A stretch of DNA of 64,000 nucleotides from an uncultured Lachnospiraceae bacterium. Its GTDB lineage: Bacteria; Bacillota; Clostridia; Lachnospirales; Lachnospiraceae. The stretch covers positions 64,001-128,000 of the forward strand of contig CASYCI010000001.1 of assembly GCA_949481375.1 (NCBI GenBank), given 5' to 3'. How positions within the stretch are numbered: position 1 is the first letter of the stretch; each line of letters begins with the position of its first letter. A model generated the notes under the pieces. That model had not been told where the DNA came from. It did no database searches and worked only from the letters and a program-made list of their open reading frames with translations. Below, in pieces: positions 5,941 through 59,873 of the stretch. Made by a program: the position numbers and the translations under genes.

Positions 5941-6159
5941 ACAAAAACAGAACCAATGATTGTAATATAATTTTTTACAAATACATCGGTTCTGTTTTTT
6001 ATGATAATTTTCTACAAACTCATCAATTCTGTTTTTATGATAATTTCCTACAGATTCTTCGATTCTGTTTTTTATGATAATTTTCTACAAACTCATCAAT
6101 TCTGTTTTTCATGATAATTTCCTACAAATTCTTCGATTCTGTTTTTTATATTATTATCC
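5941..6159. repeat. tandem direct repeats, 36-37 bp x5 with alternating A/B variants, preceded by an inverted partial copy
   Basis: Units start at 5977, 6014, 6050, 6087 and 6123: TACAAA(Y)TCATCRRTTCTGTTTTT(T)ATGATAATTTYC. 5941-5960 is an inverted copy of the CGGTTCTGTTTTT core. The array lies in the convergent intergenic gap between the DUF3892 gene and the RND gene. Confidence 0.9.
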
Positions 6160-6186: not shown

Positions 6187-9100
6187 CTAGTTCCCACGCT
6201 CCATCTGTTCAATAAATTCCGCGGCGTCGTCCGGCGCATCGTCCATAGAATCGTCCCCAACGTCTACGACGATTACTTCTTTGCGGTAAAGAATATCGTA
6301 CATCACCGGAACGATAAACATCGTCATAAACGTTGCATAGAACAAGCCGCCCGCTACGACAAGCGCCATTCCCCTGCCAAGCTCACTTGCCGTATCTTGG
6401 CTGAACACCATTGCAAGCATGGCCAGAATAGTCGTAAACGCCGTCATTAAAATGGGACGCATACGCGTTTTCCCAGTCGCTGCCAGAGCATCTTTTCGCT
6501 CCATTCCTCCTATGCGAAGCTGGTTCGTATAATCCACAAACACAATCCCGTTATTTACAACCGTCCCCATCAGCACCAAAAATCCCATCAGCGTAATTAA
6601 AGACATCTGCTCGCCCGTAAACAGCATAGCAAGCAGCCCGCCCGTAAATGCCAGCGGAACCGTAAAAATAACGATAAATGGAGACAGAAGGCTTTGAAAC
6701 TGCGCCACCATGACAAGATAAATCAGAAGGAAGCCTAAAAGCAGAAGCTTTGACATCTGGTTCATCATATCATTTGTATTTGACGTTTCCCCGCCAAATT
6801 CTACGCTATAGCCTTCCGGCAATTCATACTCTGCCAGCAGTTCTTCCACTTCCCTTGACAAAATCGTAGTATTGTACCCCTCTTTTGTCTCCGCAGTCAC
6901 GCTCATCTGCCTTTGTCCGTTTGCGCGGTTTATCCCCGCTACGCTGTTACCATACTCCAGCGTCGCAAATTCACTCAGCTTGTGCGTTTCCGTCACAGTT
7001 TTGCCATCGTCGTCCGTCTTCTGCGTTTCAAATTCCATATCCATCAGGTTTTCTTTCGTCAGCAGATTCGTTTCATCGACTATTTTCACGTCCATGTCAG
7101 TGTCGTCTACTGTCAGCGTAACCGCCGTTTTATCCGTTGTCAGCCTGTCAGAAATATCTCCATAAATCTGCGCTCCCGTCAAACCAAGCCGCATAGATGC
7201 ATCTTTATCAATATTCAGATGAATTTCCTCGTCCGCTTCCTCCTGCCCATTGCTGATATTAGAAAAACCTTCCACACCCTCCAACATCTCCATAATTTCT
7301 TCACTTACCAACAGCAGTTGATCCAAATCCGAACCGCCTATGTCAAGCTGAAGGCCGCTGCCAAGCATTTGATCCATTTCACCCATCATAGAATTTGACA
7401 CTGCCACTTCGCACTCAAACTCTTTCGTATGTTCTAAAATCGCATCGCAAATGCCCTCCACCTGAGATTTGCTGTTATATTCCTCCGCGGGAAGAACAAA
7501 ATACGAAAAATTACTGAAATTATCCGAAGAACCGCCCGTCATGCCGCCCATTAATCCGGCAGAACTGCTGCCGTCCATGGCTCCTACATATCCAACTCCC
7601 TCAATCCCAAGAATCGCTTCCATCACATCGTCTGCTTTTTGATAAGCCGTTTCTTTCGTGTCTTCTTCCGGGATCGTCACCGTTACGGAAATCTGGTCGC
7701 TACCCATATCCGGGATTAACACGATCCCCATTTTCATAACCGCGGCAATGCAAATCGCCAAAAGCCCGACAGAAATTCCAAGCGGAACAATTTTAAATCT
7801 CAGGCAAAACTTAAGCGCCGCCGCATAGCCTTCCTGAATCTTATCAAAAATACGATGCTGTTTCGGTTTCGCCTTCCGAAGCATTGCCGCCCCCATCGTA
7901 GGCACTACTGTCAGCGCAACAGCTAAGGAAGCCGTCAGGGCAAACGTAATCGTCAAAGCAAACGGCAACAGCAAATCCCTCACCATGCCCGTCGTAAACA
8001 CCATCGGGAAAAATACGCAAATCGTCGTAAGCGTTGACGCTATAATCGCCCCAGCCACCTGTTTTGCCCCTTGAACGGCAGAACGGGGAGAACTTAAGCC
8101 CCGATACCGCAGACGGTAAATATTTTCTATTACAACAATGGAGTTATCCACCAGCATACCTACTGCCAAAGAAAGCCCTGACAGGGACATCATGTTGATG
8201 GAAATGCCTGCAAAATACATAATGACGATTGCCGTCAAAACGCTGAACGGGATACTAAACGCAACGACGATCGTTGGGCGTATATCCATCAAAAAGACTG
8301 CCAAAATGAAAATCGCAAGCAGCGCCCCAATCACCATGCTGGACACAATGCTTTGAATCAGCATAGAAATATATTCCCCCTGATTCACTAACGGCGTAAT
8401 GTTCAATTTTGGGTAGTCCTCTTTTAATTCCTCTATTGCGTTTAAACAGGCTTCTGAAACATCGCTTGTGCCCGCCGTACTGCCTTTAAAAATAGATAGA
8501 ATCACTCCGGCGTCCTGATTGACCTTCGCATATGTTTCTCCGGCATTGTCAATCGTCGTAATATCCGCAACGTCATTCAAATGAACGTCCCCAATGCCGT
8601 CTATCTCACAGAGCGTCATTTTTTCTAATTCTTCCGCCGAAGTATAATTTTCCCCTACTTTTAAAAGCCATTGTTTCTCATTTTCATCGTCGATATATCC
8701 TGCCGGCATAGAAAAATTTTGCGCATAGATCATGCCAGAAAGCGCTTCTAACGTCAACATTTGATTGATATTCGCATTTTTCCTCGCTTCCGCAACAGAA
8801 TCCTGATACGTCTTATTGGCATTTTCCAATTCTTCCTGCGCTTCTTCCATTGCCGTCTTTGCCGCGGCAATCTGCGCGCCGCCGGAACCAAACCCCGCCG
8901 CCGCAGATATTTTGCCTTGTTCCGCCTGCTTATACGCCTCGTCAATGGACGCCATCTGGGTTTCCACCTGCTTTAAGACTTCTTCCGCTACTTTAATCTC
9001 TACCTCCAGATTCGCCAGCTCCGTCTCTATTTGCGGAAGGCGGACGTTTACAATGTCATAAAGCTGTTTTAATGTTTTTTTGTCTAGTTCCTTTGCCTGA

Positions 9101-10197
9101 CGAACCATGCCCTTATCTATCTGTGAATTAGGCATTCCCGCAAGCGTTTCCACTGCCGTTTTGAAATAGTTCAATTTATCCGGATTGTCGATTGCATCTT
9201 TTATATCTGCCGGCATCGCAGACGCATCCAACGGGCTGGCTTCCCCTAGCTGCGCGGAAATCCCTGCAACAGCGGCGGAAAGCTGCGCAAACATATCGTT
9301 TATGCTGTTATATGTACTTTCTATTTTATTCTCTTTATATGCCTTTTTCTCACCTTCTAAAGCGCTTTTACTTGCTTTTAGGCTGGTAAGCTGGGATTCA
9401 TACGCCGCCCTCGAAGCAACCGCTTCATTTAATTTTAATGTCGCATCCGCAAGTTCCGTCGTTGTCGAATTTTGCTGATTTGACAAATCCTGCTCTTGTT
9501 TATTGATTTTTGACTTTGCGTCCGCCAATGAATTTTCCGCTTCGGAAAGCTCTGACTGCGCCTCTGAAAGCTTGTCATTTGTCTTTACCAATATTTGATC
9601 ATTTATTTTATCAATTTTTTCCTGATTCAGCCGAACTTCCACCGACTTTTCCACTATGCCGATTTCCGATATGCTCGCCACGCCCGCCTGCCGTTCAAAA
9701 TACGGAATCACCACTTCTTCCGTAAAGCCAGACAACTCATAAATGTCTTTCCCTTCATAACTGACGCTGGCGTACATCGTCGCCATCATATCCATGCTAA
9801 TCTCTAAAATATTCGGCGCGCCGCATGTCTCCGGCAGCGCCGATTCTATTTGGTTAATCGCCGAGGAAACTTTTACCATCGCAGAATCCATGCTCGTGTC
9901 TTCTTCAAACTCCAGCATAACCATACTGTAATTTTCAGAACTGGAACTTGTCACGTCTTCTACGCCGTTTATCGTCCCCAATGCTCCCTCCATTGGTTTT
10001 GTAACGCTTTCCTCCACTTTTTCCGGGCTTGCCCCCGGATAAGTCGTAATCACCATCATGTACGGCATACTCATGTCCGGCAGTAAATCCGTTTTCATTC
10101 CTGTAAGTGAAACCAATCCAATTACCAATACAATAATCACTGCGACTAATACCGTAAATGGCTTTTTCACGCTATACTTAATCATCTCATCCTCCAT
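6187..10197 (-). CDS. RND superfamily efflux transporter permease (AcrB/HAE-like) with a ~290-aa coiled-coil insertion in the first extracytoplasmic loop
   Basis: 1336 aa. 12-TM RND topology with conserved TM4/TM10 regions. Residues ~195-490 are low-complexity heptad-like sequence (KLSEAQSELSEAENSLADAKSKINKQEQDL...). No adjacent membrane-fusion protein gene. Confidence 0.85.
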   Translation of the reverse strand: MEDEMIKYSVKKPFTVLVAVIIVLVIGLVSLTGMKTDLLPDMSMPYMMVITTYPGASPEKVEESVTKPMEGALGTINGVEDVTSSSSENYSMVMLEFEEDTSMDSAMVKVSSAINQIESALPETCGAPNILEISMDMMATMYASVSYEGKDIYELSGFTEEVVIPYFERQAGVASISEIGIVEKSVEVRLNQEKIDKINDQILVKTNDKLSEAQSELSEAENSLADAKSKINKQEQDLSNQQNSTTTELADATLKLNEAVASRAAYESQLTSLKASKSALEGEKKAYKENKIESTYNSINDMFAQLSAAVAGISAQLGEASPLDASAMPADIKDAIDNPDKLNYFKTAVETLAGMPNSQIDKGMVRQAKELDKKTLKQLYDIVNVRLPQIETELANLEVEIKVAEEVLKQVETQMASIDEAYKQAEQGKISAAAGFGSGGAQIAAAKTAMEEAQEELENANKTYQDSVAEARKNANINQMLTLEALSGMIYAQNFSMPAGYIDDENEKQWLLKVGENYTSAEELEKMTLCEIDGIGDVHLNDVADITTIDNAGETYAKVNQDAGVILSIFKGSTAGTSDVSEACLNAIEELKEDYPKLNITPLVNQGEYISMLIQSIVSSMVIGALLAIFILAVFLMDIRPTIVVAFSIPFSVLTAIVIMYFAGISINMMSLSGLSLAVGMLVDNSIVVIENIYRLRYRGLSSPRSAVQGAKQVAGAIIASTLTTICVFFPMVFTTGMVRDLLLPFALTITFALTASLAVALTVVPTMGAAMLRKAKPKQHRIFDKIQEGYAAALKFCLRFKIVPLGISVGLLAICIAAVMKMGIVLIPDMGSDQISVTVTIPEEDTKETAYQKADDVMEAILGIEGVGYVGAMDGSSSAGLMGGMTGGSSDNFSNFSYFVLPAEEYNSKSQVEGICDAILEHTKEFECEVAVSNSMMGEMDQMLGSGLQLDIGGSDLDQLLLVSEEIMEMLEGVEGFSNISNGQEEADEEIHLNIDKDASMRLGLTGAQIYGDISDRLTTDKTAVTLTVDDTDMDVKIVDETNLLTKENLMDMEFETQKTDDDGKTVTETHKLSEFATLEYGNSVAGINRANGQRQMSVTAETKEGYNTTILSREVEELLAEYELPEGYSVEFGGETSNTNDMMNQMSKLLLLGFLLIYLVMVAQFQSLLSPFIVIFTVPLAFTGGLLAMLFTGEQMSLITLMGFLVLMGTVVNNGIVFVDYTNQLRIGGMERKDALAATGKTRMRPILMTAFTTILAMLAMVFSQDTASELGRGMALVVAGGLFYATFMTMFIVPVMYDILYRKEVIVVDVGDDSMDDAPDDAAEFIEQMERGN

Positions 10198-39235: not shown

Positions 39236-39459
39236 AAAAAAGAGCCGTCTATGCTAGCGGGGCTGTGTTCTGGGATTAAGGGGTTCTAATGTGTTCCTTC
39301 TGCTTTTTGGTTTCGGACGCAACCACTGCAGACACGCCTTCCATGGCGTGGCTGCAGTTTGCCCTGCCGTCCATGGCAGGGCATTGCTGTATGTTGCAGG
39401 AACACATAAGAATCCCTAAATCCCATCACAATGCCCCGCTAGCATAGACGGCTTTTTTG
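39236..39459. repeat. structured intergenic element, copy A (candidate structured RNA or miniature element inserted in a hairpin loop)
   Basis: Perfect 20-bp terminal stem GCCGTCTATGCTAGCGGGGC / GCCCCGCTAGCATAGACGGC, flanked by A6 and T6. Inner arms GGGATTAAGGGGTTCTAA / TAAGAATCCCTAAATCCC. Internal hairpins CACGCC-TTCCAT-GGCGTG and CCCTGCC-GTCCAT-GGCAGGG. Homologous to copies B and C. Confidence 0.6.
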
Positions 39460-39837
39460 CGGCGCTTTGGCTGAATTTACTTTTTTATATTATATCGGTG
39501 GCGCTTAAGGGTGTATGGCTATACGGTTGGCTGTGAATGTTATCTGCTAATTCGCAGGCTAAAATGTACTTTGTTTTTTTATGTTATAACTATGTGTGTG
39601 TTGTGGGTTCTATATTGACTTGTTTTACTTTTGCTGTTTTGTTACCTTGTTTCGCTTTTGTTGGTTTCATTGATTGGTTTGTTTCGCTTTTGCTGTTTTT
39701 AAAGCTGGAATTTGGGCTGGAATTGATATGTTTTGGGAGGTTTGCGCATTCTGTAAGTATGTGTTTCTTTTTTGGCGGGTTATTTTGTTTCTGTTTGTAA
39801 ATGCTTTTTTATGATGGGATTCTTTTGAAAGGAGGTT

Positions 39838-48020: not shown

Positions 48021-49571
48021 TTATTTTTTACGCGGCGGCAAAGCCAGCCGCTTCTCAATTTCATCAATTACAATCTGAATTGCCTGAAGCCTTGCATAAT
48101 ATTTATTATTTGACTGAATAATAAACCATGGCGCATTTTCCGTTGAAGTTTTCTCAATCATTTCATCAATGGCTGTTTCATATACGTCCCATTTCTCACG
48201 GTTCCGCCAGTCCTCGTCTGTGATTTTCCACTGCTTTTCCGGCGTATTCTGCCGTTCAGTAAAACGGGCAAGCTGTGTTTCTTTATCTATATGCACCCAG
48301 AATTTAATGACTGCCGCACCCCAGTCCGTCAATTCTTTTTCAAATTCATTGATTTCATTATACGCCCGTTTCCAATCATTTTCCGAACAAAACCCTTCAA
48401 TCCGCTCTACCATCACCCTGCCGTACCATGTGCGGTCAAAAATTGCAATATGCCCGCTTTTAGGGAGCCTGTGGTAAAACCGCCAGAGGTAGTGACGTGA
48501 TTTTTCATGCGGTTCCGGAGATGCGATTGGATAAACTTCAAACCCCCTTGGGTCGAGCGCGCTTGCCAGCCGCTTAATATTCCCGCCTTTTCCAGCGGCG
48601 TCCCAGCCTTCGTAAGCAATGATCACAGGGATCTTTTTGCGGTAAATCTTATTATGAAGCTTCTTCAGCTTCTTTTGCAGTTCCTTTAACTGGACCTCAT
48701 ATTCTTCCCTCGACAAACTCTGGTTCAACGGAACTTCGGAAAGCTTTGGCATTTTAAGCAGCGGATAGTCTTTGTACAAGATTTCCGGAAGCGCCTTTCT
48801 GTTTACTTCCGCCTGATTAATTTGAATCGTTAAAATATGAAGCGCCTGAAGCAGAGCCTGCTTTTTGTCTGTGGCATCGACAATGTTCCACGGCGCATAT
48901 CCGGTATTCGTCGCTTCTAACAGCCTGTCGTAGAGCTTCTCGTACTTTTCCCGCTTCTTTACTTGAAGAAGATCTTTTTCAGACACCCGCCATTTTGTAT
49001 CCTTATCCCCCAGCAATTTCTCTATCCGCTGTTTTTGTTCCTCCGGCGGAATCTGTAAAAACAATTTTACAACAAGATAACCGTTGTCTTTTAACTGACG
49101 CTCAAAAATACGGATTTGCCTTAACCTCTGCTCTAAAGAAACGTCGTCTATCTTGCTGTCCGCCATTGCGTCCGCCGTCTCACTTAACCAGCCGGAATTT
49201 AGAAACAGAAACTGCCCTGCCGCCGGCATAACTTCCATGTACCGCCATAAAAACGGACGGCGCTGCGCTTCCTCAGTCGGCGCATTCATTTTTTTCACAT
49301 GGAAAAACCTCGGATCTAAATCTTCGATTAAATTGCCAATTAAGGTGCCTTTGCCGGAAGCTCCCCAGCCTTCCACTAACACAAAAACCGGAAGCGCCTG
49401 CTCTTTAATTAAAAGCTGCTGGCGGACAAGCTCCGCCCGTTTCTCCCTGACTAACGCCTTAATCTCCTCTTGCGGCATTTGATACCTGCGTGTCTCATAC
49501 TGTCTCAACATAATAAGTCCCCCTTTTTTCTTATTTTCGAATAGCTTCTCCCAAAATATGGCAATTTTCAT
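48021..49571 (-). CDS. polyphosphate kinase 2 family protein, two-domain (polyphosphate:AMP/nucleotide phosphotransferase type)
   Basis: Two PPK2 modules, each with a Walker-A-like motif: VLVEGWGASGKGT and IAYEGWDAAGKGG, plus lid motifs. True start may be the internal Met (MLRQYETRRYQ). Confidence 0.85.
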   Translation of the reverse strand: MKIAIFWEKLFENKKKGGLIMLRQYETRRYQMPQEEIKALVREKRAELVRQQLLIKEQALPVFVLVEGWGASGKGTLIGNLIEDLDPRFFHVKKMNAPTEEAQRRPFLWRYMEVMPAAGQFLFLNSGWLSETADAMADSKIDDVSLEQRLRQIRIFERQLKDNGYLVVKLFLQIPPEEQKQRIEKLLGDKDTKWRVSEKDLLQVKKREKYEKLYDRLLEATNTGYAPWNIVDATDKKQALLQALHILTIQINQAEVNRKALPEILYKDYPLLKMPKLSEVPLNQSLSREEYEVQLKELQKKLKKLHNKIYRKKIPVIIAYEGWDAAGKGGNIKRLASALDPRGFEVYPIASPEPHEKSRHYLWRFYHRLPKSGHIAIFDRTWYGRVMVERIEGFCSENDWKRAYNEINEFEKELTDWGAAVIKFWVHIDKETQLARFTERQNTPEKQWKITDEDWRNREKWDVYETAIDEMIEKTSTENAPWFIIQSNNKYYARLQAIQIVIDEIEKRLALPPRKK

Positions 49572-50301
49572 TTGCCAAACCGCTTTCTATAGGATTTGTG
49601 AATATCGCCGTCCCTTTTTTATCACGGATATCGTCTAATGTGGCCCCTTCTTCCAACTCCTGATACTTCTCTCCGGTATAAGTAAGCTCCCGATAGCTCT
49701 GTCCGATGGAAACCGGCTCTGTCCCCTGTTCTTTTAATACAGACACTGTCTGCGTATTTTCCGTTAAAATTAAATTCCTGTAGCCCTCTGTCTTCTGGCT
49801 GCTGATATACACCGGAGTTCCAACCTGTTCAAACGACTGGCGCACAGAATCTTTTGATAGGCTTCCCCGTTCCACATTTAGCCATAACAAAACATTTCCC
49901 TGTATCTGCGGGACGTCCTGCCCGAACACAAAAGCAAGTATTTCATTTTGCCCATCTTCATTTAAGTCAACATAATTATAATAATAACGCGTCTTTTCAA
50001 AATCTTCTTCCCTTATGCCGCAATATTTGGCGATCGCCTGCTCTAATTCCCGATGCGCTTCTTCTTCCGCAATCCGCCCTTCAAATCCTTCCGGTATCTC
50101 GACTGCATTGCCTAACTGAAGCTGGCTTGTATGTTCCGTATCTACTGCAATTTCCGTCTCCGTCCCATGAACCGCCTGCGTATTCTGCGGACGGTTTGTA
50201 TCTACACCGGCATTATCCGGCGTCTTTGTCCCACATCCGGCCGCTGCGGCTAATATCATTGCCGGCACAAAGAAAAGCGCGCGTTTTTTTTCCATCTCCA
50301 A
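49531..50301 (-). CDS. hypothetical lipoprotein
   Basis: Signal peptide with lipobox LAAAAGC. No recognisable domain. Confidence 0.6.
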   Translation of the reverse strand: MEMEKKRALFFVPAMILAAAAGCGTKTPDNAGVDTNRPQNTQAVHGTETEIAVDTEHTSQLQLGNAVEIPEGFEGRIAEEEAHRELEQAIAKYCGIREEDFEKTRYYYNYVDLNEDGQNEILAFVFGQDVPQIQGNVLLWLNVERGSLSKDSVRQSFEQVGTPVYISSQKTEGYRNLILTENTQTVSVLKEQGTEPVSIGQSYRELTYTGEKYQELEEGATLDDIRDKKGTAIFTNPIESGLANENCHILGEAIRK

Positions 50302-50487
50302 AATCCCCTTTCCCTCTGGTCTGTTTTTTTCTATCAGTATTTGAAAAGGAGAGTTCTTTTATTCAGTATAGCGCAGATTCCAAAATTTTAATAGCGATTG
50401 GTTTTTTTTTTGCAAGGATTTTTCTATTTCAATCGTATTACTTATGTAGAGGAAAAAAACAGCAACAAAATCAAAAGGAGGAGACAA

Positions 50488-50850
50488 ATGAAATCTTTTC
50501 GGAACCTAAAAAAAGCAGTTCTCGTTTTATTCGCGTCAGTTTTGCTCTCAGGCAGTTTTGCAGCGCCTGTTTGGGCGCATGGCCATTCGGGCGGAAATCA
50601 CCACAACAATTCCGGCTGCTATTCTAACACGTCTAACAACAGCCAGCAGGGGACTTACTGCGCTTACCATGAGAAAAACCATAAACAGGGCGCAATCTGT
50701 AAATACTATGGACCGACCAAAAAGAAAGGCGCATACTGCGAATACCACGATAAATACCACAAAAAGAAAACAAACTGCAAAAAATACTGTACAAAACATC
50801 ACACCACCCATGCAAATGGGAAAAAACATCATACTTCTAAACATCATTAA
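50488..50850 (+). CDS. secreted His/Cys/Lys-rich small protein (~90-aa mature)
   Basis: AGGAGG 8 nt before the ATG. Sec signal peptide ending PVWA/HG. Mature part has 6 Cys, ~15 His and many Lys, with internal repeat G-x-YC-x-YH-x-K-x-HK. Confidence 0.6.
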   Translation: MKSFRNLKKAVLVLFASVLLSGSFAAPVWAHGHSGGNHHNNSGCYSNTSNNSQQGTYCAYHEKNHKQGAICKYYGPTKKKGAYCEYHDKYHKKKTNCKKYCTKHHTTHANGKKHHTSKHH

Positions 50851-50986
50851 GTTTCAGACAGCTATTTTAGCGTAAAAGGCGGTGTATGGAATTAAATTTT
50901 TCCATCATTGCCTTTTTTGTTGTGATTTACTGTAAAAAGGTATACTATGGCAAGAGAGGGTTTCTTTTTTTACCGTTTGCGGGAAG

Positions 50987-51526
50987 GTGGGGATTACGAT
51001 GCGAAGCGAACAGGAGGTATGCCGCGCAGTGGAAACCTATGCGGACATGGTGCGGCGTATCTGCTTTTATTATCTGAAAAACCGTGAAGACACGGAAGAT
51101 GTGTTCCAAAAAGTATTTATGAAATATATGATGTGTGATGCGCCTTTTCGTGACAGTGAACATGAAAAAGCATGGCTTCTGCGTGTTACCATTAACGCCT
51201 GCAAAGACGACTTGAGAAACTTTTTCCGCCGGAATACCCTTCCTTTGGAAACGATAACGGAACTGGAAGCCGAGATTCCGGAAGATTTTAGGGACGTATT
51301 AGAAGCGGTGCTTTCTTTGCCGGAAAAATACAAAAATCCGATCTACCTGCATTATTATGAAGGATATTCTGCCGCTGAAATCGGAGCCATTCTTGGAAAA
51401 AAAGAAAATACGGTTTATTCCTTATTATCAAGAGGGCGGCGGCTGTTAAAAGACTATTTAAAAGACTGCCCTTCAGCGGCAAAATATTATCAAAAAAAGA
51501 CGGGAGGGGAAGGAATTGGCGAATGA
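50987..51526 (+). CDS. ECF sigma-70 family sigma factor
   Basis: Region 2 (EDVFQKVFMKYM) and region 4 (YEGYSAAEIGAILGKKENTVYSLLSRGRRLL). Overlaps the downstream anti-sigma start. Confidence 0.8.
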   Translation: MGITMRSEQEVCRAVETYADMVRRICFYYLKNREDTEDVFQKVFMKYMMCDAPFRDSEHEKAWLLRVTINACKDDLRNFFRRNTLPLETITELEAEIPEDFRDVLEAVLSLPEKYKNPIYLHYYEGYSAAEIGAILGKKENTVYSLLSRGRRLLKDYLKDCPSAAKYYQKKTGGEGIGE

Positions 51527-52262
51527 CATACGCGACGCATTTGACCACATAAAAGCAGACGAACATTTAATTGAATCAACGAAGCAATTTATTACACAAA
51601 ACAATCAGAAAAAACCGCGGATGCGTTTCCAAAAGACATTTGCCACCGCCTGCGCTGCGCTGCTTCTGGCCATCGGAATTACAGGATATTCATGGACAAA
51701 AACGCCCGTCTCATATATCAGCATTGACGTCAATCCCTCTATAGAACTTTCCTTAAACCGCTTTGGCCGCGTCGTTTCTGCAACGGCATTCAATGCGGAA
51801 GGCAGAAAAATATTAGAAACTCTTTCCTTAAAAGGAAAACGCGACACAACGGCTGTCCATGAAATTATTGAAAATGAAACGATGCAAACCTTTTTATCTG
51901 ATGAAGCGGAGCTTGTTTTAACGGTTGCTGAGGAAAAAACGCAACGGGGCTTAAACCGGAGAATGAAAGCCTGTTCGAACCACCTAAGCCATGAATGCCA
52001 GCATATCCGCGCTGATATAGAAATCGTAGAGGACGCGCACAGTTACGGACTTTCTTTCGGCAAGTATTACGCATACCTCCAATTAAGCCAATATGACAGC
52101 GGCGTCACGCCTGAAGACTGTAAACATATGGATATTTCCACAATCCATGAGCTTACCTGCGAGCATGAGCAGAACGAAACCACGGACGGCGAAAACGCTC
52201 CTTCCAAAGAAACCCGCTGCCACCACCACGATAAAAAGCACAATCAATCCCATAAACAGTAA
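51516..52262 (+). CDS. putative membrane anti-sigma factor with Cys/His-rich C-terminal tail
   Basis: Translationally coupled to the sigma factor. Single TM (TFATACAALLLAIGITGYSW). Extracytoplasmic domain ending ...CSNHLSHECQH...DCKHMD...LTCEHEQNETT...ETRCHHHDKKHNQSHKQ. Confidence 0.6.
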   Translation: MANDIRDAFDHIKADEHLIESTKQFITQNNQKKPRMRFQKTFATACAALLLAIGITGYSWTKTPVSYISIDVNPSIELSLNRFGRVVSATAFNAEGRKILETLSLKGKRDTTAVHEIIENETMQTFLSDEAELVLTVAEEKTQRGLNRRMKACSNHLSHECQHIRADIEIVEDAHSYGLSFGKYYAYLQLSQYDSGVTPEDCKHMDISTIHELTCEHEQNETTDGENAPSKETRCHHHDKKHNQSHKQ

Positions 52263-52360
52263 AATCCTCTGCCAAATGAAACTTTAAACGGCATCCGTCT
52301 TGACAGATGCAAAAACTATTCCTAAAATAAGGGGAAGCCTTTCAGAAAGGAAAAAATATC

Positions 52361-53704
52361 ATGTTATCAAAAATAGCCAAACGGCTGTCAGGAATGCAGC
52401 TTATCGCAGGCGGCTTTTGCATTATCATTTTTATAGGCGCCTTCCTTTTAATGCTTCCGTTCGCAACAAAATCCGGAGAACACACCTCCTTTTTAACAGC
52501 GTTATTCACATCTGCCAGCGCCACATGCGTAACCGGCCTGATTGTCGCAGACACCTTTACGCACTGGACGATATTTGGGCAGGTTGTGCTTTTATTCTTA
52601 ATCCAGATCGGCGGTCTTGGATTTATCACTCTTGGCATCTCCGTCTCTATGATTCTCCGAAAGAAAATCGGCCTTAGCGAACGGGGTCTGTTACGGGAAA
52701 GTTTTAATGTCATTGAACTAAGGGGCTTAGTGCGTCTGACGAAACGCATCCTTATAGGAACGCTCCTGTTTGAACTAACCGGAGCTGTCATACTTTCTTT
52801 GTGTTTTATTCCAAAAACCGGAGTCGCGGCCGGAATTTACTATGGTATTTTCCACTCCGTTTCCGCATTTTGCAACGCAGGGTTTGACTTAATGGGAAAA
52901 TATTCCCCCTTCTCGTCCCTGACTGGCTATCACAGCAATCCAGTCGTAATGATTACAATTATGCTCTTAATCATAATTGGCGGCATAGGTTTCTATGTCT
53001 GGAACGATTTATATGAACACAGGCTAAAGTTCCGCCATTACTCCCTGCATACTAAAATTGTCCTTACCGCTACTGCGGCGCTGCTTTTTTGCGGCGCAGC
53101 CGCTTTTTATTTTATGGAACGCAACAATCTGTTTGCCAACATGACACAGACGGAAAAACTGTTAAATTCCATGTTCTGCGCCGTAACGCCAAGGACTGCG
53201 GGATTTAACTCGATTGAAGTAAGCGACATGACGCAAGCCGGAAAACTGCTTACGATTGTCCTAATGTTTATCGGCGGAGGCTCCGGATCTACGGCAGGCG
53301 GGGTTAAAGTCACTTCCGTTGTCGCGCTTTTTATCTACATCAAAGCAAACCTGACGCGTTCCGTCGGCTATAATGTATTTGGCAGACGCATTGAAGACGA
53401 TGCGCTCCGAAAATCTTCCGCTATTTTTTGTACAAACTTAACGCTTGCCACACTATCCGCGATTGCTATCTGCGCGCTGCAAAACTTAAACGGCATAGAC
53501 GTTTTGCTGGAAGTGTTTTCTGCAATCGGGACAGTCGGCATGTCCGCCGGACTGACGACACAGCTTCAAACGCCCGCCCTGCTAATCCTTATCTTGCTGA
53601 TGTATTTAGGCCGTGTCGGAAGCTTATCTTTTGCCATGTCCTTTACAGACAAAAAGAAAATCGCGCATATTATGCAGCCCGCTGAAAAAATAAACGTCGG
53701 CTGA
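52361..53704 (+). CDS. ktrB: TrkH/KtrB-family potassium transporter membrane subunit
   Basis: 447 aa. Repeated M-P-M selectivity-filter-like segments (TCVTGL, IGGLG, GFNS, GGSGSTAGG). Confidence 0.88.
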   Translation: MLSKIAKRLSGMQLIAGGFCIIIFIGAFLLMLPFATKSGEHTSFLTALFTSASATCVTGLIVADTFTHWTIFGQVVLLFLIQIGGLGFITLGISVSMILRKKIGLSERGLLRESFNVIELRGLVRLTKRILIGTLLFELTGAVILSLCFIPKTGVAAGIYYGIFHSVSAFCNAGFDLMGKYSPFSSLTGYHSNPVVMITIMLLIIIGGIGFYVWNDLYEHRLKFRHYSLHTKIVLTATAALLFCGAAAFYFMERNNLFANMTQTEKLLNSMFCAVTPRTAGFNSIEVSDMTQAGKLLTIVLMFIGGGSGSTAGGVKVTSVVALFIYIKANLTRSVGYNVFGRRIEDDALRKSSAIFCTNLTLATLSAIAICALQNLNGIDVLLEVFSAIGTVGMSAGLTTQLQTPALLILILLMYLGRVGSLSFAMSFTDKKKIAHIMQPAEKINVG

Positions 53705-53732
53705 CCAAATTTTAGTTTCAGGAGGAACCATT

Positions 53733-54401
53733 ATGAAATCCATATTAATTATCGGGACAGGCCATTTCGGCTCTCATTTATGTATGAATTTATCAAAATT
53801 AAATAATGAGATTATGATTGTAGATAAATGCGAAGAACAGTTAGAAGACCTGCTTCCTTATGTCACAAGCGCAAAAATAGGCGACTGCGCAAATGCAAAA
53901 GTGCTTGAAAGCCTTGGCGTTTCGAATTTCGACATCTGCGTCGTATGTATCGGGGATTCTTTTCAAGACAGCCTTGAAATCACAAGCCAATTAAAAGACT
54001 TAGGAGCCAAACGGGTGGTCAGCAAAGCAAACCGGGACTTGTACGCCAAATTCCTGTTGCGTAACGGAGCGGACAAAGTGATCTTTCCGGATCGGGACAT
54101 CGCAGAAAAACTTGCCGTCCAGTTAAGCTCAGACAGTATTCTGGATTATTTTAACCTGACGGACGGATATTCCATATGTGAAATTTCTCCGCTAAAAGAA
54201 TGGATCGGCAAAACGATTCTTGAAGTAAATTTCCGCACAAAATACCACTTAAGCATTATCGGGGTAAAAGTCGACGACCAGACAAAAATCATGCCGAACG
54301 CAGATTATGTCTTCCAAAACGGGGAAAACCTGATTGTCATTGGCAGACAGGAAGATATTAATAAAATCATACGCAATAAAAATAAATCGGCTTGGAGGTA
54401 A
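53733..54401 (+). CDS. ktrA: TrkA/KtrA potassium uptake regulatory subunit (RCK N- and C-domains)
   Basis: IIGTGHFGSHL Rossmann motif; RCK_C in the C-terminal half. Confidence 0.88.
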   Translation: MKSILIIGTGHFGSHLCMNLSKLNNEIMIVDKCEEQLEDLLPYVTSAKIGDCANAKVLESLGVSNFDICVVCIGDSFQDSLEITSQLKDLGAKRVVSKANRDLYAKFLLRNGADKVIFPDRDIAEKLAVQLSSDSILDYFNLTDGYSICEISPLKEWIGKTILEVNFRTKYHLSIIGVKVDDQTKIMPNADYVFQNGENLIVIGRQEDINKIIRNKNKSAWR

Positions 54402-54406
54402 ATCTT

Positions 54407-55621
54407 ATGAATAAATCAGAAGTATTAGAACTTAAACGCCGTCTGAAAAAAGACGCCTGCACCTTTACACGCATGTGTGGCTGTTACGTTGACGGAGAAC
54501 GAAACCGAATTGTAAAGCTGGAAGAAACTTTTCTCAATTTAGACGAAGAAGAATTTTACAAATATTTGGAAATTGCAAGAAAAGCCCTCTCCGGCGTAAT
54601 TGGAAACCAGCTTTTAGAACTGGAATTTCCACTGGAAGAAGAAGCCGTCGGGGGACGGCAGCATTTTCTCTCCGCATTAAAAAGCAGCGCGCTGAAAAAT
54701 CCGGATCTCTTAGAGCGGTTCTACGATTTAATCATTGACAATTACGAATATACCGGAAATTACCTTATTTTGATTTTTCATGATGCATATGACGTCATCA
54801 TAAAGACAAAAGACAAAAACAGTCTGGACGAATCCGAAGAAGTCTATGAATATCTGCTCTGCGCCATTTGCCCGGTCAGCTTAAGCAAGCCTGCGCTTGG
54901 GTACCGCTCGGACGAAAACCGCATTGGCGCAAGAGTCCGCGACTGGGTTGTTGGCGCGCCGGAAAGCGGCTTTCTATTTCCGGCATTTACCGACAGAAGT
55001 TCAGATATCCATGCAGTAATGACCTATCATAAAAACCCGAAAGAACCGCATACAGAATTCATGGAAGGCGCTTTAGGCTGTGTTGCAAGACGCACTGCCG
55101 CCGAACAAAAACAAGCGTTTCAGTCGATTGTCCAGAAAGCCTTTGGCGGAGATGAGGAAAAATCCACGGAAGCCTTTAATGAAATCCAGCAGGAACTCTC
55201 AGACTTTGCCGCAGGGCAAGAGCCAGACGAAGACGCAACGCAAAAAGATCCGGCGCGCTTAAGCGCAGATGACATTGGAAAACTAATGGAAGAATCCGAT
55301 ATGCCAAAGACAGCCGCAGAAGTCATCGCTTCTTCTTACCGTGAAGAATTTCAAGACGAAACGCCCCTTTTAGAAAACCTAATGGACAGCAAAGCCGCCC
55401 TTGCCGGCTCCAAACTCCGCCAGCAGAAAGACTTAGTAAAAAAGGTTGCCGCCCTAGAAGAACAGCTTGGAAACACAAAAACATACGACGTAATCCTGCG
55501 TGTAAAACCGGAAAAAGAACAGCAAATCCAATCCCAAATCATTAATGGAAGAAAATGTATCGTTATTCCTATGGAAGAAAATGAACACGCAATCGTCAAT
55601 GGACGAAATACAACTGTCTAA
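54407..55621 (+). CDS. DUF4317-family protein
   Basis: MNKSEVLELKRRLKKDACTFTRMCGCYVDGE N-terminus, characteristic of Firmicutes DUF4317 proteins. Start at ATG 54407 after GGAGGT; the track start at 54392 is less likely. Confidence 0.55.
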   Translation: MNKSEVLELKRRLKKDACTFTRMCGCYVDGERNRIVKLEETFLNLDEEEFYKYLEIARKALSGVIGNQLLELEFPLEEEAVGGRQHFLSALKSSALKNPDLLERFYDLIIDNYEYTGNYLILIFHDAYDVIIKTKDKNSLDESEEVYEYLLCAICPVSLSKPALGYRSDENRIGARVRDWVVGAPESGFLFPAFTDRSSDIHAVMTYHKNPKEPHTEFMEGALGCVARRTAAEQKQAFQSIVQKAFGGDEEKSTEAFNEIQQELSDFAAGQEPDEDATQKDPARLSADDIGKLMEESDMPKTAAEVIASSYREEFQDETPLLENLMDSKAALAGSKLRQQKDLVKKVAALEEQLGNTKTYDVILRVKPEKEQQIQSQIINGRKCIVIPMEENEHAIVNGRNTTV

Positions 55622-55664
55622 AAAAACGACGTGCGCCAAACGAACTGCCGTTGGCTCACGTCGT
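55620..55664 (-). terminator. rho-independent terminator for glcK (weaker in + direction for DUF4317 gene)
   Basis: ACGACGTG...CACGTCGT stem, followed on the minus strand by TTTTTTT. Confidence 0.6.
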
Positions 55665-55672
55665 ATCTGTCT

Positions 55673-56611
55673 TTATTCTAAAATCATACGCACACAACCG
55701 TAAATTCCTGCATCATTTCCCAAAGTTGCAAGGTCAAAATGAGCGTCCAGACACGCATTAAACGACTTGGCGTCATAGTATTTTTTGACACGCTCCGTAA
55801 TAATGCTGCCTGCTTTCGACACGCCTCCGCCAATTACAAAAGTCTCAGGATTTACGACACGGGCAACATTTGCAAGCGCACCGCCTAATATCTTAGTCAT
55901 ATCTTCCACAATTTCATCGGCTAAGGCGTCGCCCCCTTTTGCCGCGTCAAAAATATCTTTTGCCGTCAACGGCTTAATCTCACGAAGCTGGCTTTTCTTC
56001 TCCGATTCCTCTAACTTACGCTCTGCCATATGGACAATCCCAGTTGCGGATGCATACTGCTCCAAACAGCCTTTCTGTCCACATCCACAAGATTCCGTCT
56101 CATTCTCATTGACAATAATATGCCCGATTTCCCCGCCGGCTCCTTTATTTCCACTGACAACTTTTCCATCAACGATTACGCCGCCGCCCACTCCGGTCCC
56201 AAGCGTAATCATTACAACATTCGTATATCCTTTGCCGCCGCCCTGCCACATTTCGCCAAGCGCAGCCACATTTGCGTCATTGCCGACTTTTACGGTAAAG
56301 CCCGTCCGTTCTTCCATATCCTTTGCAACATTAATCACATCCCAGCCCAAGTTGACGCATTTTAATACAACGCCTTCCCCAGTCACAGGCCCCGGAACCC
56401 CAATTCCAATTCCCTGAATGTCTCCTTTTAAAATATCCTTTTCCACCATTTTCGCCGTTATAAACGCCGCAACGTCCGGAAGGATATTTTCTCCATTATT
56501 TTCTTTTCTTGTGGGAATTTCCCATTTTTCCACAAGCCCCCCTGTCGTCTCGAACAGTCCAATCTTACAGGTCGTCCCGCCAATGTCTACGCCAAAACCA
56601 TATTTTTTCAT
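55673..56611 (-). CDS. glcK: ROK-family glucokinase
   Basis: MKKYGFGVDIGGTTCK ATP-binding N-terminus. ROK Zn-site motif IGHIIVNENETESCGCGQKGCLE. Start at 56611 with GGAGAAGG upstream. Confidence 0.85.
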   Translation of the reverse strand: MKKYGFGVDIGGTTCKIGLFETTGGLVEKWEIPTRKENNGENILPDVAAFITAKMVEKDILKGDIQGIGIGVPGPVTGEGVVLKCVNLGWDVINVAKDMEERTGFTVKVGNDANVAALGEMWQGGGKGYTNVVMITLGTGVGGGVIVDGKVVSGNKGAGGEIGHIIVNENETESCGCGQKGCLEQYASATGIVHMAERKLEESEKKSQLREIKPLTAKDIFDAAKGGDALADEIVEDMTKILGGALANVARVVNPETFVIGGGVSKAGSIITERVKKYYDAKSFNACLDAHFDLATLGNDAGIYGCVRMILE

Positions 56612-56702
56612 ATATGCCTTCTCCTTTTCTTTTATTCTGACTTTAAGTATAAAATTGTGGGGGGTTAATGTCAATCCATAATTAAATAAATGTGTCCGTC
56701 AT

Positions 56703-56913
56703 GGGGTGGCGCTTGGCGGGTGACTTATTCATGGATTAAGAACTTCTAAACAGTCCCGCAGCTATCTTGAATACGGACGGAACCGCTCCATACACGCCGT
56801 CCATGGCGTGAATGGAGCTTCCGCGAACGTCCTGTTCGCGGATTCCTGAATCGAAATGTGACTGTTAAGAAGTTCTAAATCCAATCATAACGCCACCCGC
56901 CAAGCGCCACCCC
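56703..56913. repeat. structured intergenic element, copy B
   Basis: Perfect 20-bp terminal stem GGGGTGGCGCTTGGCGGGTG / CACCCGCCAAGCGCCACCCC. Arms GGATTAAGAACTTCTAA / TTAAGAAGTTCTAAATCC. Core GGACGGAACCGCT. Hairpins CACGCC-GTCCAT-GGCGTG and CCGCGAAC-GTCCT-GTTCGCGG. Confidence 0.6.
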
Positions 56914-57039
56914 CTGACTACGTTACTGGCTGCCCGATAGGGTTTTGGCTTTGTTTCTTTTTGTTTTGGTATATCTACATAAATATAGATGTGTAGGTTT
57001 TTAGGATTTTTGTTTAACTTTTCACCTCTTTAAAAATCG

Positions 57040-57611
57040 CCACGTTTTCATACGTTTCACTCCCTAACTACTACCAGACAAACTGAGCGCCGTAGATTCT
57101 ATCAGCGCCTTATCATACGTTCCAGCCTCCAACTACCAGACCAACTTAGAGCTGGGTTTTCTATTGGCGCCTTTGATGGAATTTAGGTCTTTAATGCGCA
57201 CATATTTTCTTTCTTCAACTTCCACTCTCTCATATGTTCCACACCCAACTACCAGACCAACAAAACGCAGGGTTTCCTATTGGCGCCTTTAATGAATTTT
57301 AGGACTTGAAAGCGTAACTTTCTTCTTTCTTCAACTTCCACTCTCTCATATGTTCCACCCCCCCAACTACCAGACCAACAAAACGCAGGGTTTCCTATCG
57401 GCGCCTTTGATGAATTTTAGGACTTGAAAGCGTAACTTTCTTCTTTCTTCAACTTCCACTCTCTCATATGTTCCACCCCCAACTACCAAACGAACAGAGC
57501 GCCGGGTTTCCTATTGGCGCCTTTAATGAACTTTAGGACTTGAAAGCGTAACTTTCTTCTTTCTTCAACTTCCAACTCTCTCATACGTTCCACCCCCAAC
57601 TACCAGACGAA
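57040..57611. repeat. tandem array of ~117-bp units (4 full + degenerate ends) derived from the terminal part of element copy C plus ~70 bp of flank
   Basis: Unit starts (AACTACCAGAC...) at 57131, 57247, 57365, 57481 and 57598 (period 116-118). Divergence increases with distance from element C. Each unit carries a decayed copy of the C terminal stem (GGCGCC...GCGCC) and arm remnant. Confidence 0.8.
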
Positions 57612-57831
57612 CAGAGCGCCGGGTATTCTGTTGGCGCCTTGTGATGGGATTTAGGAGTTCTTAAGTATCCCTTCAACAAACAGAAATCCGCAGACACGAT
57701 GTCTGCGGAAGCTCTAATGCGCCATGGACGGCGCTTTTAGAGCGGTTTCGTCCGTCACCGGCATAAAACATGGGATACTTTAGAACTCCTTAATCCCTGA
57801 ACACTTCGCCGACAGAATACCCGGCGCTCTG
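57612..57831. repeat. structured intergenic element, copy C (inverted orientation relative to A/B)
   Basis: 25-bp terminal stem CAGAGCGCCGGGTATTCTGTTGGCG / CGCCGACAGAATACCCGGCGCTCTG. Arms 57646-57671 and 57772-57797. Hairpins CCGCAGACA-CGA-TGTCTGCGG and GCGCC-ATGGAC-GGCGC. Confidence 0.6.
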
Positions 57832-57845
57832 TTTGGCGTTCGGAT

Positions 57846-59873
57846 TTATTGTTCTCCTAGGGCATCCTGCCGTATCTTCTGGTACAAATCCATTTCCACA
57901 TCTACATAAGGCAAAAACTCAAGCGCCGGCAGTCCGGCATGGCAGGTTTCCATGAAACTGCGCCATATCTCCCCCGGATAGGAAGATCCAGATAAACCGG
58001 GAAGTTTTTCCGGCATATCGTAGCCGACCCAGACACTTGTCGTATAATAACGCGTATACCCTGCAAACCAACCGTCTTTATTGTCATTCGTCGTCCCTGT
58101 TTTTCCTGCGGACGGCATTCCCGTTACGCCAAGCCCTCTGCCGGTTCCTTCCGTTATTGCCGTAACAAGCATATTCGTCGCCATGCGGGCGGCAGTTGTT
58201 TTATAGATGTTTGTTTCTTCTTGTGAAGTGGAGAGAATTTCGTTGCCGTCGGCATCTGTAATTTTTATGATGCAGGTTGGAGCGCGGTATTTTCCGTCGT
58301 TTTCAAGCGTTGCGTAAGCCGCTGTAAGTTCGACTGGGGACACTCCGTTTGTCAATCCTCCTAAAGCTGACGTAAGCCGCTCGTCTTCGTCTGCAATCCG
58401 CGAAAATTTCATTGCTTTTAAATAAGAGAGTCCTTTTTTTGGCGTTATCTCCTCTAATAGTTTCCATGCAATCGTGTTTTTCGAACGGGCCAGCGCAGAA
58501 CGCAGCGTCATCTCTCCACTATAACTTCCGTCTGCATTCGACGGGCCTTCTTCAATCGGTTCGTCCACTACAATCGAATCCGGCGTATATTCCTGTTCCA
58601 ACGCCGGCGTATACACTAGTATCGGCTTAATTGCGCTTCCTGGCTGCCTATAGCTTTGATATGCCCGGTTTAACGTATATCCCGCAAAGTCTTGGCTTCT
58701 GCCCCCGACGATTGCCCTGACATATCCTGTCTCATTCTCTATGCAGACGCCTGCTCCTTGTAGTTTAAATACGCCTTCTTCATTTACGTCTGTAAAACCG
58801 GAGAGTTTTTCATCTATTGTCTTTTGAAGAAGTTCCTGTAATTTTAAATCCATTGACGTATAGATGCGGTAGCCCGCTGTAAACAGTTTTTTCTGGCATT
58901 CCGCATACAAATCACTATAACGCGTATCATACAGGCTTTTTTCTTCGTCATTTTTAAATTCTGTCTGAAAAACAAAGCCTTCCCGTTCCATTAACAGACG
59001 TATTGCGCAATAATATGTATACGTCTCCACATAGTTATTTTTTGTATGCTCTGGCCGGTTTAATGTGATTTCCTCCGATTTTGCCATCAGGTACGCGCCT
59101 TTTGAAATTTTCCCGTCTTCATACATATTTAAAAGAATGCGGTCTCTGCGCCCTAACGTGTTTTGCATATTCGTCAGCGGGTCATGAAGCGTCGGATTAT
59201 TGGGAATGGCGCATAAAAACGCAATTTGTGACAAATCCAAGTCATTCACGTCTGCATTAAAGTATCCTCTGCTCGCCGCCTGAATCCCATAATAACCATT
59301 GCCAAAATATATATTATTCAGATAAAATTCTAGGATTTTATTTTTACTGTACTTTTTTTCCAGCTCTGTTGCAATAAACATTTCCTCGACTTTTCTCTGC
59401 CATGTCCGATCCTGTGTCAAAAAAATCGTCCTTGCAAGCTGCTGTGTTATCGTGCTCCCGCCCTGTGTCACTTCTCCGTTTTCAATCGCGGCTCTTGCCG
59501 CGCGGAAAATCGCCCGGTAATCAATTCCATTATGCTGATAAAATTTTTTATCTTCTATGCTTACGATAGCGGCGCATGCATCAGACGGAATATCCTCATA
59601 TGGCAGATAGTAAACGTCTTTTTCCCCTTTTAACGTTGAAATCGTATTTCCGTCTTTGTCATACACAACGCTGGTCTGAGCCACGCAAAACGTGGCTTCT
59701 GTCGACCCGCGCACAAACCGCACAGCTTCCGCTTTCATCTTCTGAACCTGTACGGCATATCCTCCATAATAATAGTAGCCTAGGGCGGCGGCTACCAAAA
59801 GCATCAGAACAAACTGAAGTTTTGCAAAAAACCAAAACACACGGTATTTTTTCTTTTTCTTTTTACGGCTCAT
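57846..59873 (-). CDS. class A penicillin-binding protein (PBP1A-type transglycosylase/transpeptidase)
   Basis: 675 aa. N-terminal TM. GT51 motifs (EDKKFYQHNGID, GGSTITQQL). Transpeptidase motifs SAIK (PGSAIKP) and KTGTT. Confidence 0.88.
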   Translation of the reverse strand: MSRKKKKKKYRVFWFFAKLQFVLMLLVAAALGYYYYGGYAVQVQKMKAEAVRFVRGSTEATFCVAQTSVVYDKDGNTISTLKGEKDVYYLPYEDIPSDACAAIVSIEDKKFYQHNGIDYRAIFRAARAAIENGEVTQGGSTITQQLARTIFLTQDRTWQRKVEEMFIATELEKKYSKNKILEFYLNNIYFGNGYYGIQAASRGYFNADVNDLDLSQIAFLCAIPNNPTLHDPLTNMQNTLGRRDRILLNMYEDGKISKGAYLMAKSEEITLNRPEHTKNNYVETYTYYCAIRLLMEREGFVFQTEFKNDEEKSLYDTRYSDLYAECQKKLFTAGYRIYTSMDLKLQELLQKTIDEKLSGFTDVNEEGVFKLQGAGVCIENETGYVRAIVGGRSQDFAGYTLNRAYQSYRQPGSAIKPILVYTPALEQEYTPDSIVVDEPIEEGPSNADGSYSGEMTLRSALARSKNTIAWKLLEEITPKKGLSYLKAMKFSRIADEDERLTSALGGLTNGVSPVELTAAYATLENDGKYRAPTCIIKITDADGNEILSTSQEETNIYKTTAARMATNMLVTAITEGTGRGLGVTGMPSAGKTGTTNDNKDGWFAGYTRYYTTSVWVGYDMPEKLPGLSGSSYPGEIWRSFMETCHAGLPALEFLPYVDVEMDLYQKIRQDALGEQ

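Follow-up and report, generated by a model that had tools for sequence, protein, structure and literature searches.

A tandem array at the 5′ junction of a TwoAYGGAY RNA gene in a Lachnospiraceae genome: a probable young, locus-specific minisatellite

Why should a structured RNA gene be preceded by a string of partial copies of its own 5′ end, and do these copies contribute to the function or the spread of the RNA? The question is raised by a 64,000-nucleotide (64 kb) stretch of DNA from an uncultured Lachnospiraceae bacterium (the window), in which a tandem array with a period of 116–118 bp lies between two divergently oriented RNA elements, B and C. We consider it probable, at about 0.7, that the array is a minisatellite (VNTR) of recent origin, confined to this locus and seeded by tandem duplication across the 5′ junction of element C.

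The array and its relation to element C

Elements B and C had been noted in a sequence-only reading of the window. The array it described is real, although the family of the elements was not recognized: B and C, and a third element, A, are TwoAYGGAY RNAs (RF01731), exceeding the gathering threshold of 43 bits for the Rfam covariance model and matching it over model positions 1–168. In 2010, the family was described as a probable noncoding RNA that occurs in gut Clostridiales and in gamma-proteobacteria (Weinberg et al., 2010; PMC2864571); it has been suggested that its loops are CsrA/Rsm sites (10.64898/2026.09.22.753630). The three elements, and the features of the locus that contains B and C, are:

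Element A, 39238–39458, minus strand: TwoAYGGAY RNA, hairpin (Rfam match 39265–39431, 137.2 bits)
Element B, 56698–56918, minus strand: TwoAYGGAY RNA with extended basal stem, divergent partner of C (Rfam match 56725–56890, 120.5 bits; inverted repeats I4 and I5)
Element C, 57608–57835, plus strand: TwoAYGGAY RNA with extended basal stem, a 228-nt hairpin (Rfam match 57639–57804, 135.2 bits)
Non-repeated spacer from B to the array, 56919–57048, no strand assigned: no significant unit-profile match and no promoter passing the scan
Whole block of B hairpin, spacer, array and C hairpin, 56698–57835, no strand assigned: ~1.14 kb, where relatives have a spacer of 73–257 bp and no TwoAYGGAY
glcK promoter, 56646–56674, minus strand: TTGACA-17-TATACT, 11/12 matches in the promoter scan, with the same motif in the related loci L004–L013

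Each TwoAYGGAY match lies at the tip of a hairpin of 221–228 nt. The arms of C are 62 nt long and 85% complementary (inverted repeat I2), and C with its flanks (57582–57845) has a minimum free energy of −144.5 kcal/mol (z −14.6). When the elements are aligned, their cores are ~75% identical between copies; the outer stems have no sequence in common, yet each is self-complementary. The two-loop architecture is present in all three. The loops of A are AUGGAC and AUGGAA, and the second loop of both B and C is AUGGAC; B has CA-GGAC as its first loop, and C has CACG-AU, which lacks GGA. Thus, only the second loops of B and C retain AUGGAC, and the first hairpin of C (57687–57709) has the loop CACGAU instead of AYGGAY, though C scores 135 bits.

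B and C form a divergent doublet with their 5′ ends facing, and the array occupies most of the gap between them, on the 5′ side of C. Without the 533-bp array, the Rfam matches to B and C would be ~216 bp apart. The array had been placed, together with B, between the start of glcK and the 3′ end of PBP1A, which is correct, but the two genes are not divergent as was supposed: glcK (55673–56611) and PBP1A (57846–59873) are both on the minus strand and thus co-directional.

Tandem Repeats Finder (TRF) reports a single array at 57113–57640 (period 116, 4.5 copies, 89% matches, score 775), and no other tandem repeat in the window comes close to it in strength. An nhmmer profile built from the four full units U1–U4, each of which matches it with an E value of 1e-36 to 1e-38, refines this array to one partial unit, four full units and a parental copy, with unit starts set by a CATAYGTT anchor at 57049, 57114, 57231, 57347, 57465 and 57582:

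U0, 57049–57113, plus strand: truncated, decayed 65-bp unit with only the leader and outer 5′ stem strand (profile positions 1–60, E 6.8e-7)
U1, 57114–57230, plus strand: full unit and the oldest full copy, by unit profile; 83% identical to U2–U4
U2, 57231–57346, plus strand: full interior unit, by unit profile and pairwise identities; absent in strain L212
U3, 57347–57464, plus strand: full interior unit with a variable poly-C tract, by unit profile; 97% identical to U2
U4, 57465–57581, plus strand: full unit, by unit profile, adjoining the parental copy and keeping a C-like arm (GAACAGAGCGCCGGG)
U5, 57582–57659, plus strand: parental copy (profile positions 1–78, E 4.5e-18)

The units repeat head-to-tail every 116–118 bp on the plus strand, which is the orientation of C. 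The profile also matches the 3′ arm of C in antisense; shuffled sequence gives no matches to the unit motifs, and the region left of U0 (56900–57048) gives no significant match in nhmmer. The sequence upstream of U0 does resemble the linker described below, weakly and not significantly, and a further decayed unit at 56982–57048 (TTTTTAGGA, then 42 nt, then CATACG), suggestive by eye, was rejected as non-significant against the profile. These results bear out the tandem array of the sequence-only reading, whose coordinates and period were correct; its unit starts (57131, 57247, 57365, 57481 and 57598) describe the same array in another register, and the strings it quoted are correct reverse complements of the window sequence.

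What are the units made of? Each begins with a leader of ~27–30 nt, CATAYGTTCCACCCCCAACTACCAGAC(SAAC), that is the immediate 5′ flank of C itself. The leader is followed by ~48 nt that match the 5′ strand of the basal stem of C, including ~20 nt from the 5′ end of the family-conserved core (TTTRATGRAWTTTAGGA in the units, TTGTGATGGGATTTAGGA in C), and by a linker of 41–42 nt (CTTGAAAGCGTAACTTTCTTCTTTCTTCAACTTCCACTCTCT) that has no counterpart in C. The parental copy, U5, consists of C's own leader (57582–57607) and the 5′ strand of its basal stem up to TTTAGGA. The ~70-bp spacer that had been described is therefore indeed repeated from unit to unit, but it is not wholly foreign flank, since ~27–30 nt of it are the 5′ flank of C, nor is it separate from the stem, since it runs on into the outer 5′ strand.

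As had been proposed, the units contain a decayed copy of the terminal stem of C, and this sequence is specific to C. The outer stem of A differs from that of C, and in the alignment neither A nor B has the outer-stem sequence found in the units. Since the units carry both C-specific outer stem and family-conserved core, they were copied from the 5′ junction of C. The reverse scenario, in which the stem of C was built from an older repeat, was rejected because the units contain family-conserved core sequence. We also rejected the idea that the units are copies of the TwoAYGGAY RNA: they hold only the outer 5′ stem strand and ~20 nt of the 5′ end of the model and are unstructured, and the array has no Rfam match even at E ≤ 10. 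The arm in U4 is still 85% complementary to the 3′ arm of C over 27 nt, with three mismatches and one wobble.

The units were also thought to diverge progressively with distance from C. This is roughly true, but divergence is not a simple effect of distance. The youngest pair, U2 and U3 (97% identical), is interior; U2 and U4 are 94% identical, U3 and U4 93%, and U1 is 83% identical to each of U2–U4, while U0, at 70–80% identity to the other units, is closest to U5. Moreover, the character states are mosaic and the gradient is thus only approximate: CATACG occurs in U0, U1 and U5, GACCAAC in U1–U3, and the C-like arm in U4 and partly in U0. An approximate gradient of this kind looks like concerted evolution.

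Within the window, TRF also finds a repeat at 5967–6149 (period 37, or 73; five copies; 84–92% match). It lies in a convergent spacer, between a 98-amino-acid ORF (5582–5878, plus strand) and the 3′ end of a 1336-amino-acid transporter-like ORF (6187–10197, minus strand).

Strain variation and lineage specificity

We compared the window with eight further assemblies of the same species, in which the flanks are identical or nearly so. Across the nine, the array has three, four or five full units, and one assembly has a gap within it; since the comparison assemblies are all short-read metagenome assemblies, in which near-identical 117-bp units can collapse, the absolute counts are provisional:

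L206 and L211: U0-U1-U2-U4-U5, spacer 1116 bp
L212, a distinct haplotype with its own SNPs: U0-U1-U3*-U4-U5, spacer 1122 bp
Window, L002 and L204: U0-U1-U2-U3-U4-U5, spacer 1233–1237 bp (L002, L204)
L001: U0-U1-U2-U3-U3-U4-U5, with two U3 units, spacer 1350 bp
L003 (GCA_948856265.1, 6028–7352): scaffold gap of 100 N inside the array

The edge units are constant, identical or nearly so, across assemblies (U1 is identical in 8/9 and has one SNP in L212), and it is the interior units that vary, with the U3-type unit present zero, one or two times in other strains. Constant edges with a changing interior are the signature of unequal crossing-over or slippage. In its head-to-tail units of more than 10 bp (period 116–118, four full and partial copies, 89% match), and in the variation between three, four and five full units among the strains of the nine short-read assemblies, the array has the properties of a VNTR.

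Could the array, or its copy-number variation, be an artefact of assembly? Near-identical 117-bp units are hard for short reads, the L003 assembly has its 100-N gap inside the array, and the two U3 units of L001 are identical to each other. However, nine assemblies from different samples have the same edge units and the same flanks, the missing interior unit differs among the three-unit forms (U3 in L206 and L211, U2 in L212), and L212 carries private SNPs as well as U3-specific variants in common with the window. We therefore regard an artefact as very improbable. The earlier view that the array is genuine is upheld by the eight independent same-species short-read assemblies that reproduce it, among them the distinct haplotype L212, and the variation in unit number between strains was found in these assemblies also. 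The gap in L003, a public metagenome-assembled genome, illustrates that short-read assemblers do fail on this repeat.

The poly-C tract of the U3-type unit (57356–57364 in the window) is C6, C7, C8 or C9, depending on the assembly (L001, L002, L204, L212); most assemblies have C5 at the corresponding sites of U4 and U5. The U3 tract looks like a hypervariable simple-sequence tract and has no evident promoter or ORF context.

L212 differs from the window by 1.3% over 8.8 kb (window 48728–59513). B, the spacer and C together have one mismatch in 701 nt, and U0 and U1 have two in 182 nt, approximately the background rate. In this comparison, with its small numbers, the hairpins, unlike the array, appear to be constrained. 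The single mismatch in 701 nt could reflect either constraint or recent homogenization of the hairpin elements.

How old is the locus? In 10 related Lachnospiraceae/Roseburia species, those in which the fetched locus contains PBP1A as well as glcK (glcK protein identity 70–90%), the orthologous PBP1A-glcK spacer is only 73–257 bp. The spacers of the six species that were read contain only the stop codon and then the glcK promoter, GATTGACA-N17-TATACT. For the 11 closest species, an Rfam search of the fetched loci gave no TwoAYGGAY, and nhmmer likewise found none in these related-species loci. In the window, the block sits between the PBP1A stop codon and the −35 box of glcK, so that the promoter is retained downstream of it. 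Since the block is absent from the orthologous spacers, B, the array and C (56698–57835) are a lineage-specific insertion. No target-site duplication is visible at the block ends when they are compared with relatives (L004, L006–L008, L010–L014). The array is thus not an old conserved structure, as had been argued, being absent from the PBP1A-glcK spacer of the 10 related species, and this absence, together with the polymorphism between strains, supports the proposal of a recent, dynamic and local duplication of the element boundary. A further suggestion, that repeated one-ended events built the array, fares less well. As all units share one junction, unequal crossing-over or slippage of a single junction fits better than independent insertions.

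We suggest that a segment of 116–118 bp spanning the 5′ junction of C would first have been duplicated in tandem; the near-perfect 228-nt hairpin probably stalled replication and so favored the slippage or template switch at the outset. Once duplicated, the units would undergo unequal crossing-over, gene conversion and replication slippage, which would expand the array and reshuffle its interior units, while the edge units would become fixed and decay. The orphan 5′ arms, for which nothing indicates a function, have lost complementarity to the single 3′ arm of C. We infer both this recombination mechanism and the neutrality of the array; that no functional signal was detected does not prove the latter.

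Propagation and function as alternatives

Could the array be a footprint of TwoAYGGAY propagation, left by abortive or one-ended copying or by template switches at the 5′ base of the hairpin? Besides the lineage-specific insertion of the block, it would be consistent with this idea that all five close doublets in our gut sample (described below) are divergent like B and C, and that divergent doublets (68%) and a mobile-element-like expansion have been proposed for Pseudomonas (10.64898/2026.09.22.753630). In addition, two metagenomic loci, L185 and L194, are 100% identical over 3206 bp starting at exactly the 5′ base of the hairpin and are unrelated upstream. However, one identical junction and linker in all units points to a single event that was amplified, and boundary copies occur in 0/122 other elements. 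The family is not linked here to a transposase or recombinase, and the neighbors of the L185 element are housekeeping genes. The ~75% identity of A, B and C gives no sign of a recent transposition burst, and the ends of the block lack a visible target-site duplication. We consider this explanation quite unlikely.

The hairpin-base breakpoint between L185 (1–174) and L194 (3860–4033) may reflect a rearrangement at the strain level or, alternatively, a break in the assembly at the base of the hairpin. The common 3.2-kb segment consists of the element and housekeeping genes, and as it encodes the latter, it was rejected as a mobile element. Upstream of the L185 element are A/C-rich tandem repeats (an 18-mer in 3.7 copies and a 13-mer in three) that end the contig.

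In a broader version of this idea, TwoAYGGAY hairpins would in general have a hot spot at their 5′ base, where repeats arise and rearrangements occur as a reflection of how the elements spread. The array at the boundary of C, the G-poor repeats upstream of A, L172 and L185, the breakpoint between L185 and L194 and the 5′ arrays of Pseudomonas would all fit such a hot spot. If it exists, which we think doubtful, the array would be a rare preserved intermediate, with copying starting at the 5′ stem strand.

Does the array itself have a function? None of the units forms an RNA or DNA structure better than shuffled sequences on either strand (z −0.5 to +1.8), and a scan for promoters and terminators finds neither in the array. 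GGA is not enriched, occurring four times on the plus strand and 13 times on the minus strand, as compared to 2.5 and 14.6 expected from composition. We therefore rejected the possibility that the array extends C as a CsrA sponge, since it has neither GGA enrichment on either strand nor hairpins.

MIRU-type repeats carry short ORFs between co-directional genes, and the minus strand of the units might similarly code for a small peptide (GGGGGTGGA, 4 nt, ATG, then MREWKLKKEESYAFKS). Three units have an SD-like motif, an ATG and a 16-codon ORF, all on the strand that encodes PBP1A and glcK, and 117 bp is a multiple of three. However, U1 and U2 differ by five non-synonymous changes and one synonymous change, the U4/U5 copy is frameshifted to an unrelated 33-amino-acid product, the copies in U0 and U1 are only four to nine amino acids long, and glcK has a conserved promoter of its own downstream of the block. 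With a 5:1 ratio of non-synonymous to synonymous changes, a frameshift and truncated copies, the small ORF MREWKLKKEESYAFKS was rejected, and we give the peptide almost no credence.

It is also possible, though we think it unlikely, that the array is a functional 5′ leader, G-poor and single-stranded, that would be transcribed with C and carry repeated binding sites for protein or RNA. Such a leader would be the Bacillota counterpart of the short-repeat arrays found 5′ of TwoAYGGAY in Pseudomonadota. In Pseudomonas, oriented 5′ repeat arrays and large 3′ repeats flank these elements (Minerva preprint, 10.64898/2026.09.22.753630). Here, too, the array is on the 5′ side of C and in its orientation. 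Its plus strand is only 14% G and slightly less structured than shuffles, 176–199 of 200 of which fold at least as well in two registers. Moreover, four of the nine elements of the closest subfamily (A, C, L172 and L185) have G-poor tandem repeats within ~300 nt upstream, and CATACATTC, within the L172 repeat, is similar to the CATAYGTTC anchor of the units. Against this, these upstream repeats have no sequence homology to one another. Tandem repeats on the 5′ side do not clearly exceed the background when all 122 elements are considered, with ~6 observed as compared to ~3 expected before allowing for intergenic enrichment, and the Pseudomonas 5-mer is not enriched (1.05 and 1.39, null 1.44). 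The unit, furthermore, includes a useless, decaying orphan stem strand, strains with three, four and five units coexist, U0 and U1 change at the background rate, and a promoter was not found in the array. The recurrence of G-poor 5′ repeats in the closest subfamily hints at something recurrent at this position. The four-in-nine pattern is anecdotal, but on its account a functional or mechanistic interpretation retains a low probability.

Other TwoAYGGAY elements and other repeat families

Given that the array derives from a TwoAYGGAY gene, do other members of the family have similar arrays? By scanning gut metagenomes with the TwoAYGGAY core pattern, we obtained 120 loci with 122 elements, none of which comes from the species of the window. 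An extra direct copy of the element's own 5′ arm occurs in 0/122 of these gut elements and thus only at element C of the window, a result that cautions against generalizing the boundary array. Homologs of the unit, leader, linker or block are absent from the ~1.8 Mb of fetched related-species and metagenome loci and from plasmid and phage collections, and the core-pattern scan finds no TwoAYGGAY elements in viral contigs. Upstream of the gut elements, the Pseudomonas-type GMTBT motif is not enriched, and there is no bias in composition across all elements; such a bias is present only in the closest subfamily.

In Pseudomonadota, a September 2026 preprint describes short-repeat arrays 5′ of TwoAYGGAY copies and REP arrays 3′ of them, with hugely varying copy number, as well as divergent doublets (68%) with a median spacing of 249 bp; copies in Bacillota "generally" have only an elongated basal stem (10.64898/2026.09.22.753630). 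The locus in the window resembles those of Pseudomonas in its divergent doublet, which would be spaced by ~216 bp without the array, against that median of 249 bp, and in its flanking repeats, and it resembles the Bacillota copies of the preprint in the elongated basal stems of B and C. It differs in that the Pseudomonas arrays consist of 5- to 6-nt motifs on the 5′ side and REPs of 100–200 nt on the 3′ side, whereas here a 116-bp unit on the 5′ side is partly made of the RNA gene itself and is unique to the locus. Thus, the array is in kind a bacterial intergenic VNTR, and it adds a different type of flanking repeat that is unique to this locus. Taken alone, it is a VNTR of strain-typing grade with no evident function. 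Its value for TwoAYGGAY biology is that a divergent doublet in a Bacillota genome arrived as a lineage-specific insertion in a very short spacer, between the PBP1A stop codon and the glcK promoter, and that the sequence beside the 5′ base of the C hairpin is unstable, which fits the mobile-element-like picture proposed for Pseudomonadota (10.64898/2026.09.22.753630).

Among known repeats, how does the array compare? The MIRU-VNTR loci of Mycobacterium tuberculosis are bacterial intergenic VNTRs, or minisatellites, whose copy number differs between strains. Like them, the array consists of head-to-tail units of ~50–120 bp in a co-directional spacer, with turnover of interior units and more diverged edge units. 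Unlike them, its unit is a chimera of flank and one strand of a noncoding RNA stem, it is a single locus rather than a dispersed family, and its short ORF is not conserved. Pneumococcal BOX elements consist of boxA, a variable number of boxB and boxC, so that the variable module is inside the element, and they occur at many loci. The likeness to BOX, or to a modular MITE, lies in the combination of a structured, dispersed noncoding element with a module of variable tandem copy number; here, however, the array is outside the hairpin, at one locus and without the partner strand, and no such module accompanies the 122 other elements. CsrA sponges of the CsrB/RsmZ type have in common with TwoAYGGAY the A(N)GGA-like motifs in the hairpin loops, but the array lacks both GGA enrichment and hairpins, and the first loop of C, CACGAU, has lost GGA.

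REP, REPIN and BIME sequences are short palindromes in inverted pairs that are dispersed genome-wide and linked to the RAYT transposase. We rejected a REP/REPIN/BIME array, since the units are not palindromic and have no other occurrence in the window or in the ~1.8 Mb of fetched loci. A CRISPR array was also rejected, as the array repeats whole 116-bp units and contains no unique spacers.

A/C-rich, G-poor tandem repeats lie 120–280 nt upstream of closely related TwoAYGGAY elements, at 39619–39699 in the window (5′ of A; period 32, 2.8 copies) and at 224–386 of L172 (period 17, 34 or 68). Copy-number variation of the 32-bp repeat was rejected, since the length of the spacer that contains it is equal in three strains.

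All five close TwoAYGGAY pairs (<500 bp) in the gut-metagenome sample are divergent (minus, plus), with gaps between cores of 119–384 bp (L135 910–1392, L148 13468–13949, L152 2013–2496, L192 5033–5439 and L150 6230–6898). Although the sample is small, these five pairs extend the divergent-doublet bias of Pseudomonas to gut Clostridia. The basal stem of gut Clostridia elements also usually extends far beyond the Rfam model. When 113 elements (L084–L203) were folded with 60-nt flanks, a median of 48 base pairs linked the two 65-nt terminal segments, many rods reached the edge of the 286-nt folding window, and in 88 of the 113 the sense strand was the more stable of the two strands. By a cruder estimate, obtained by walking along the stem, the hairpins have a median span of 216 nt and reach at most 308 nt.
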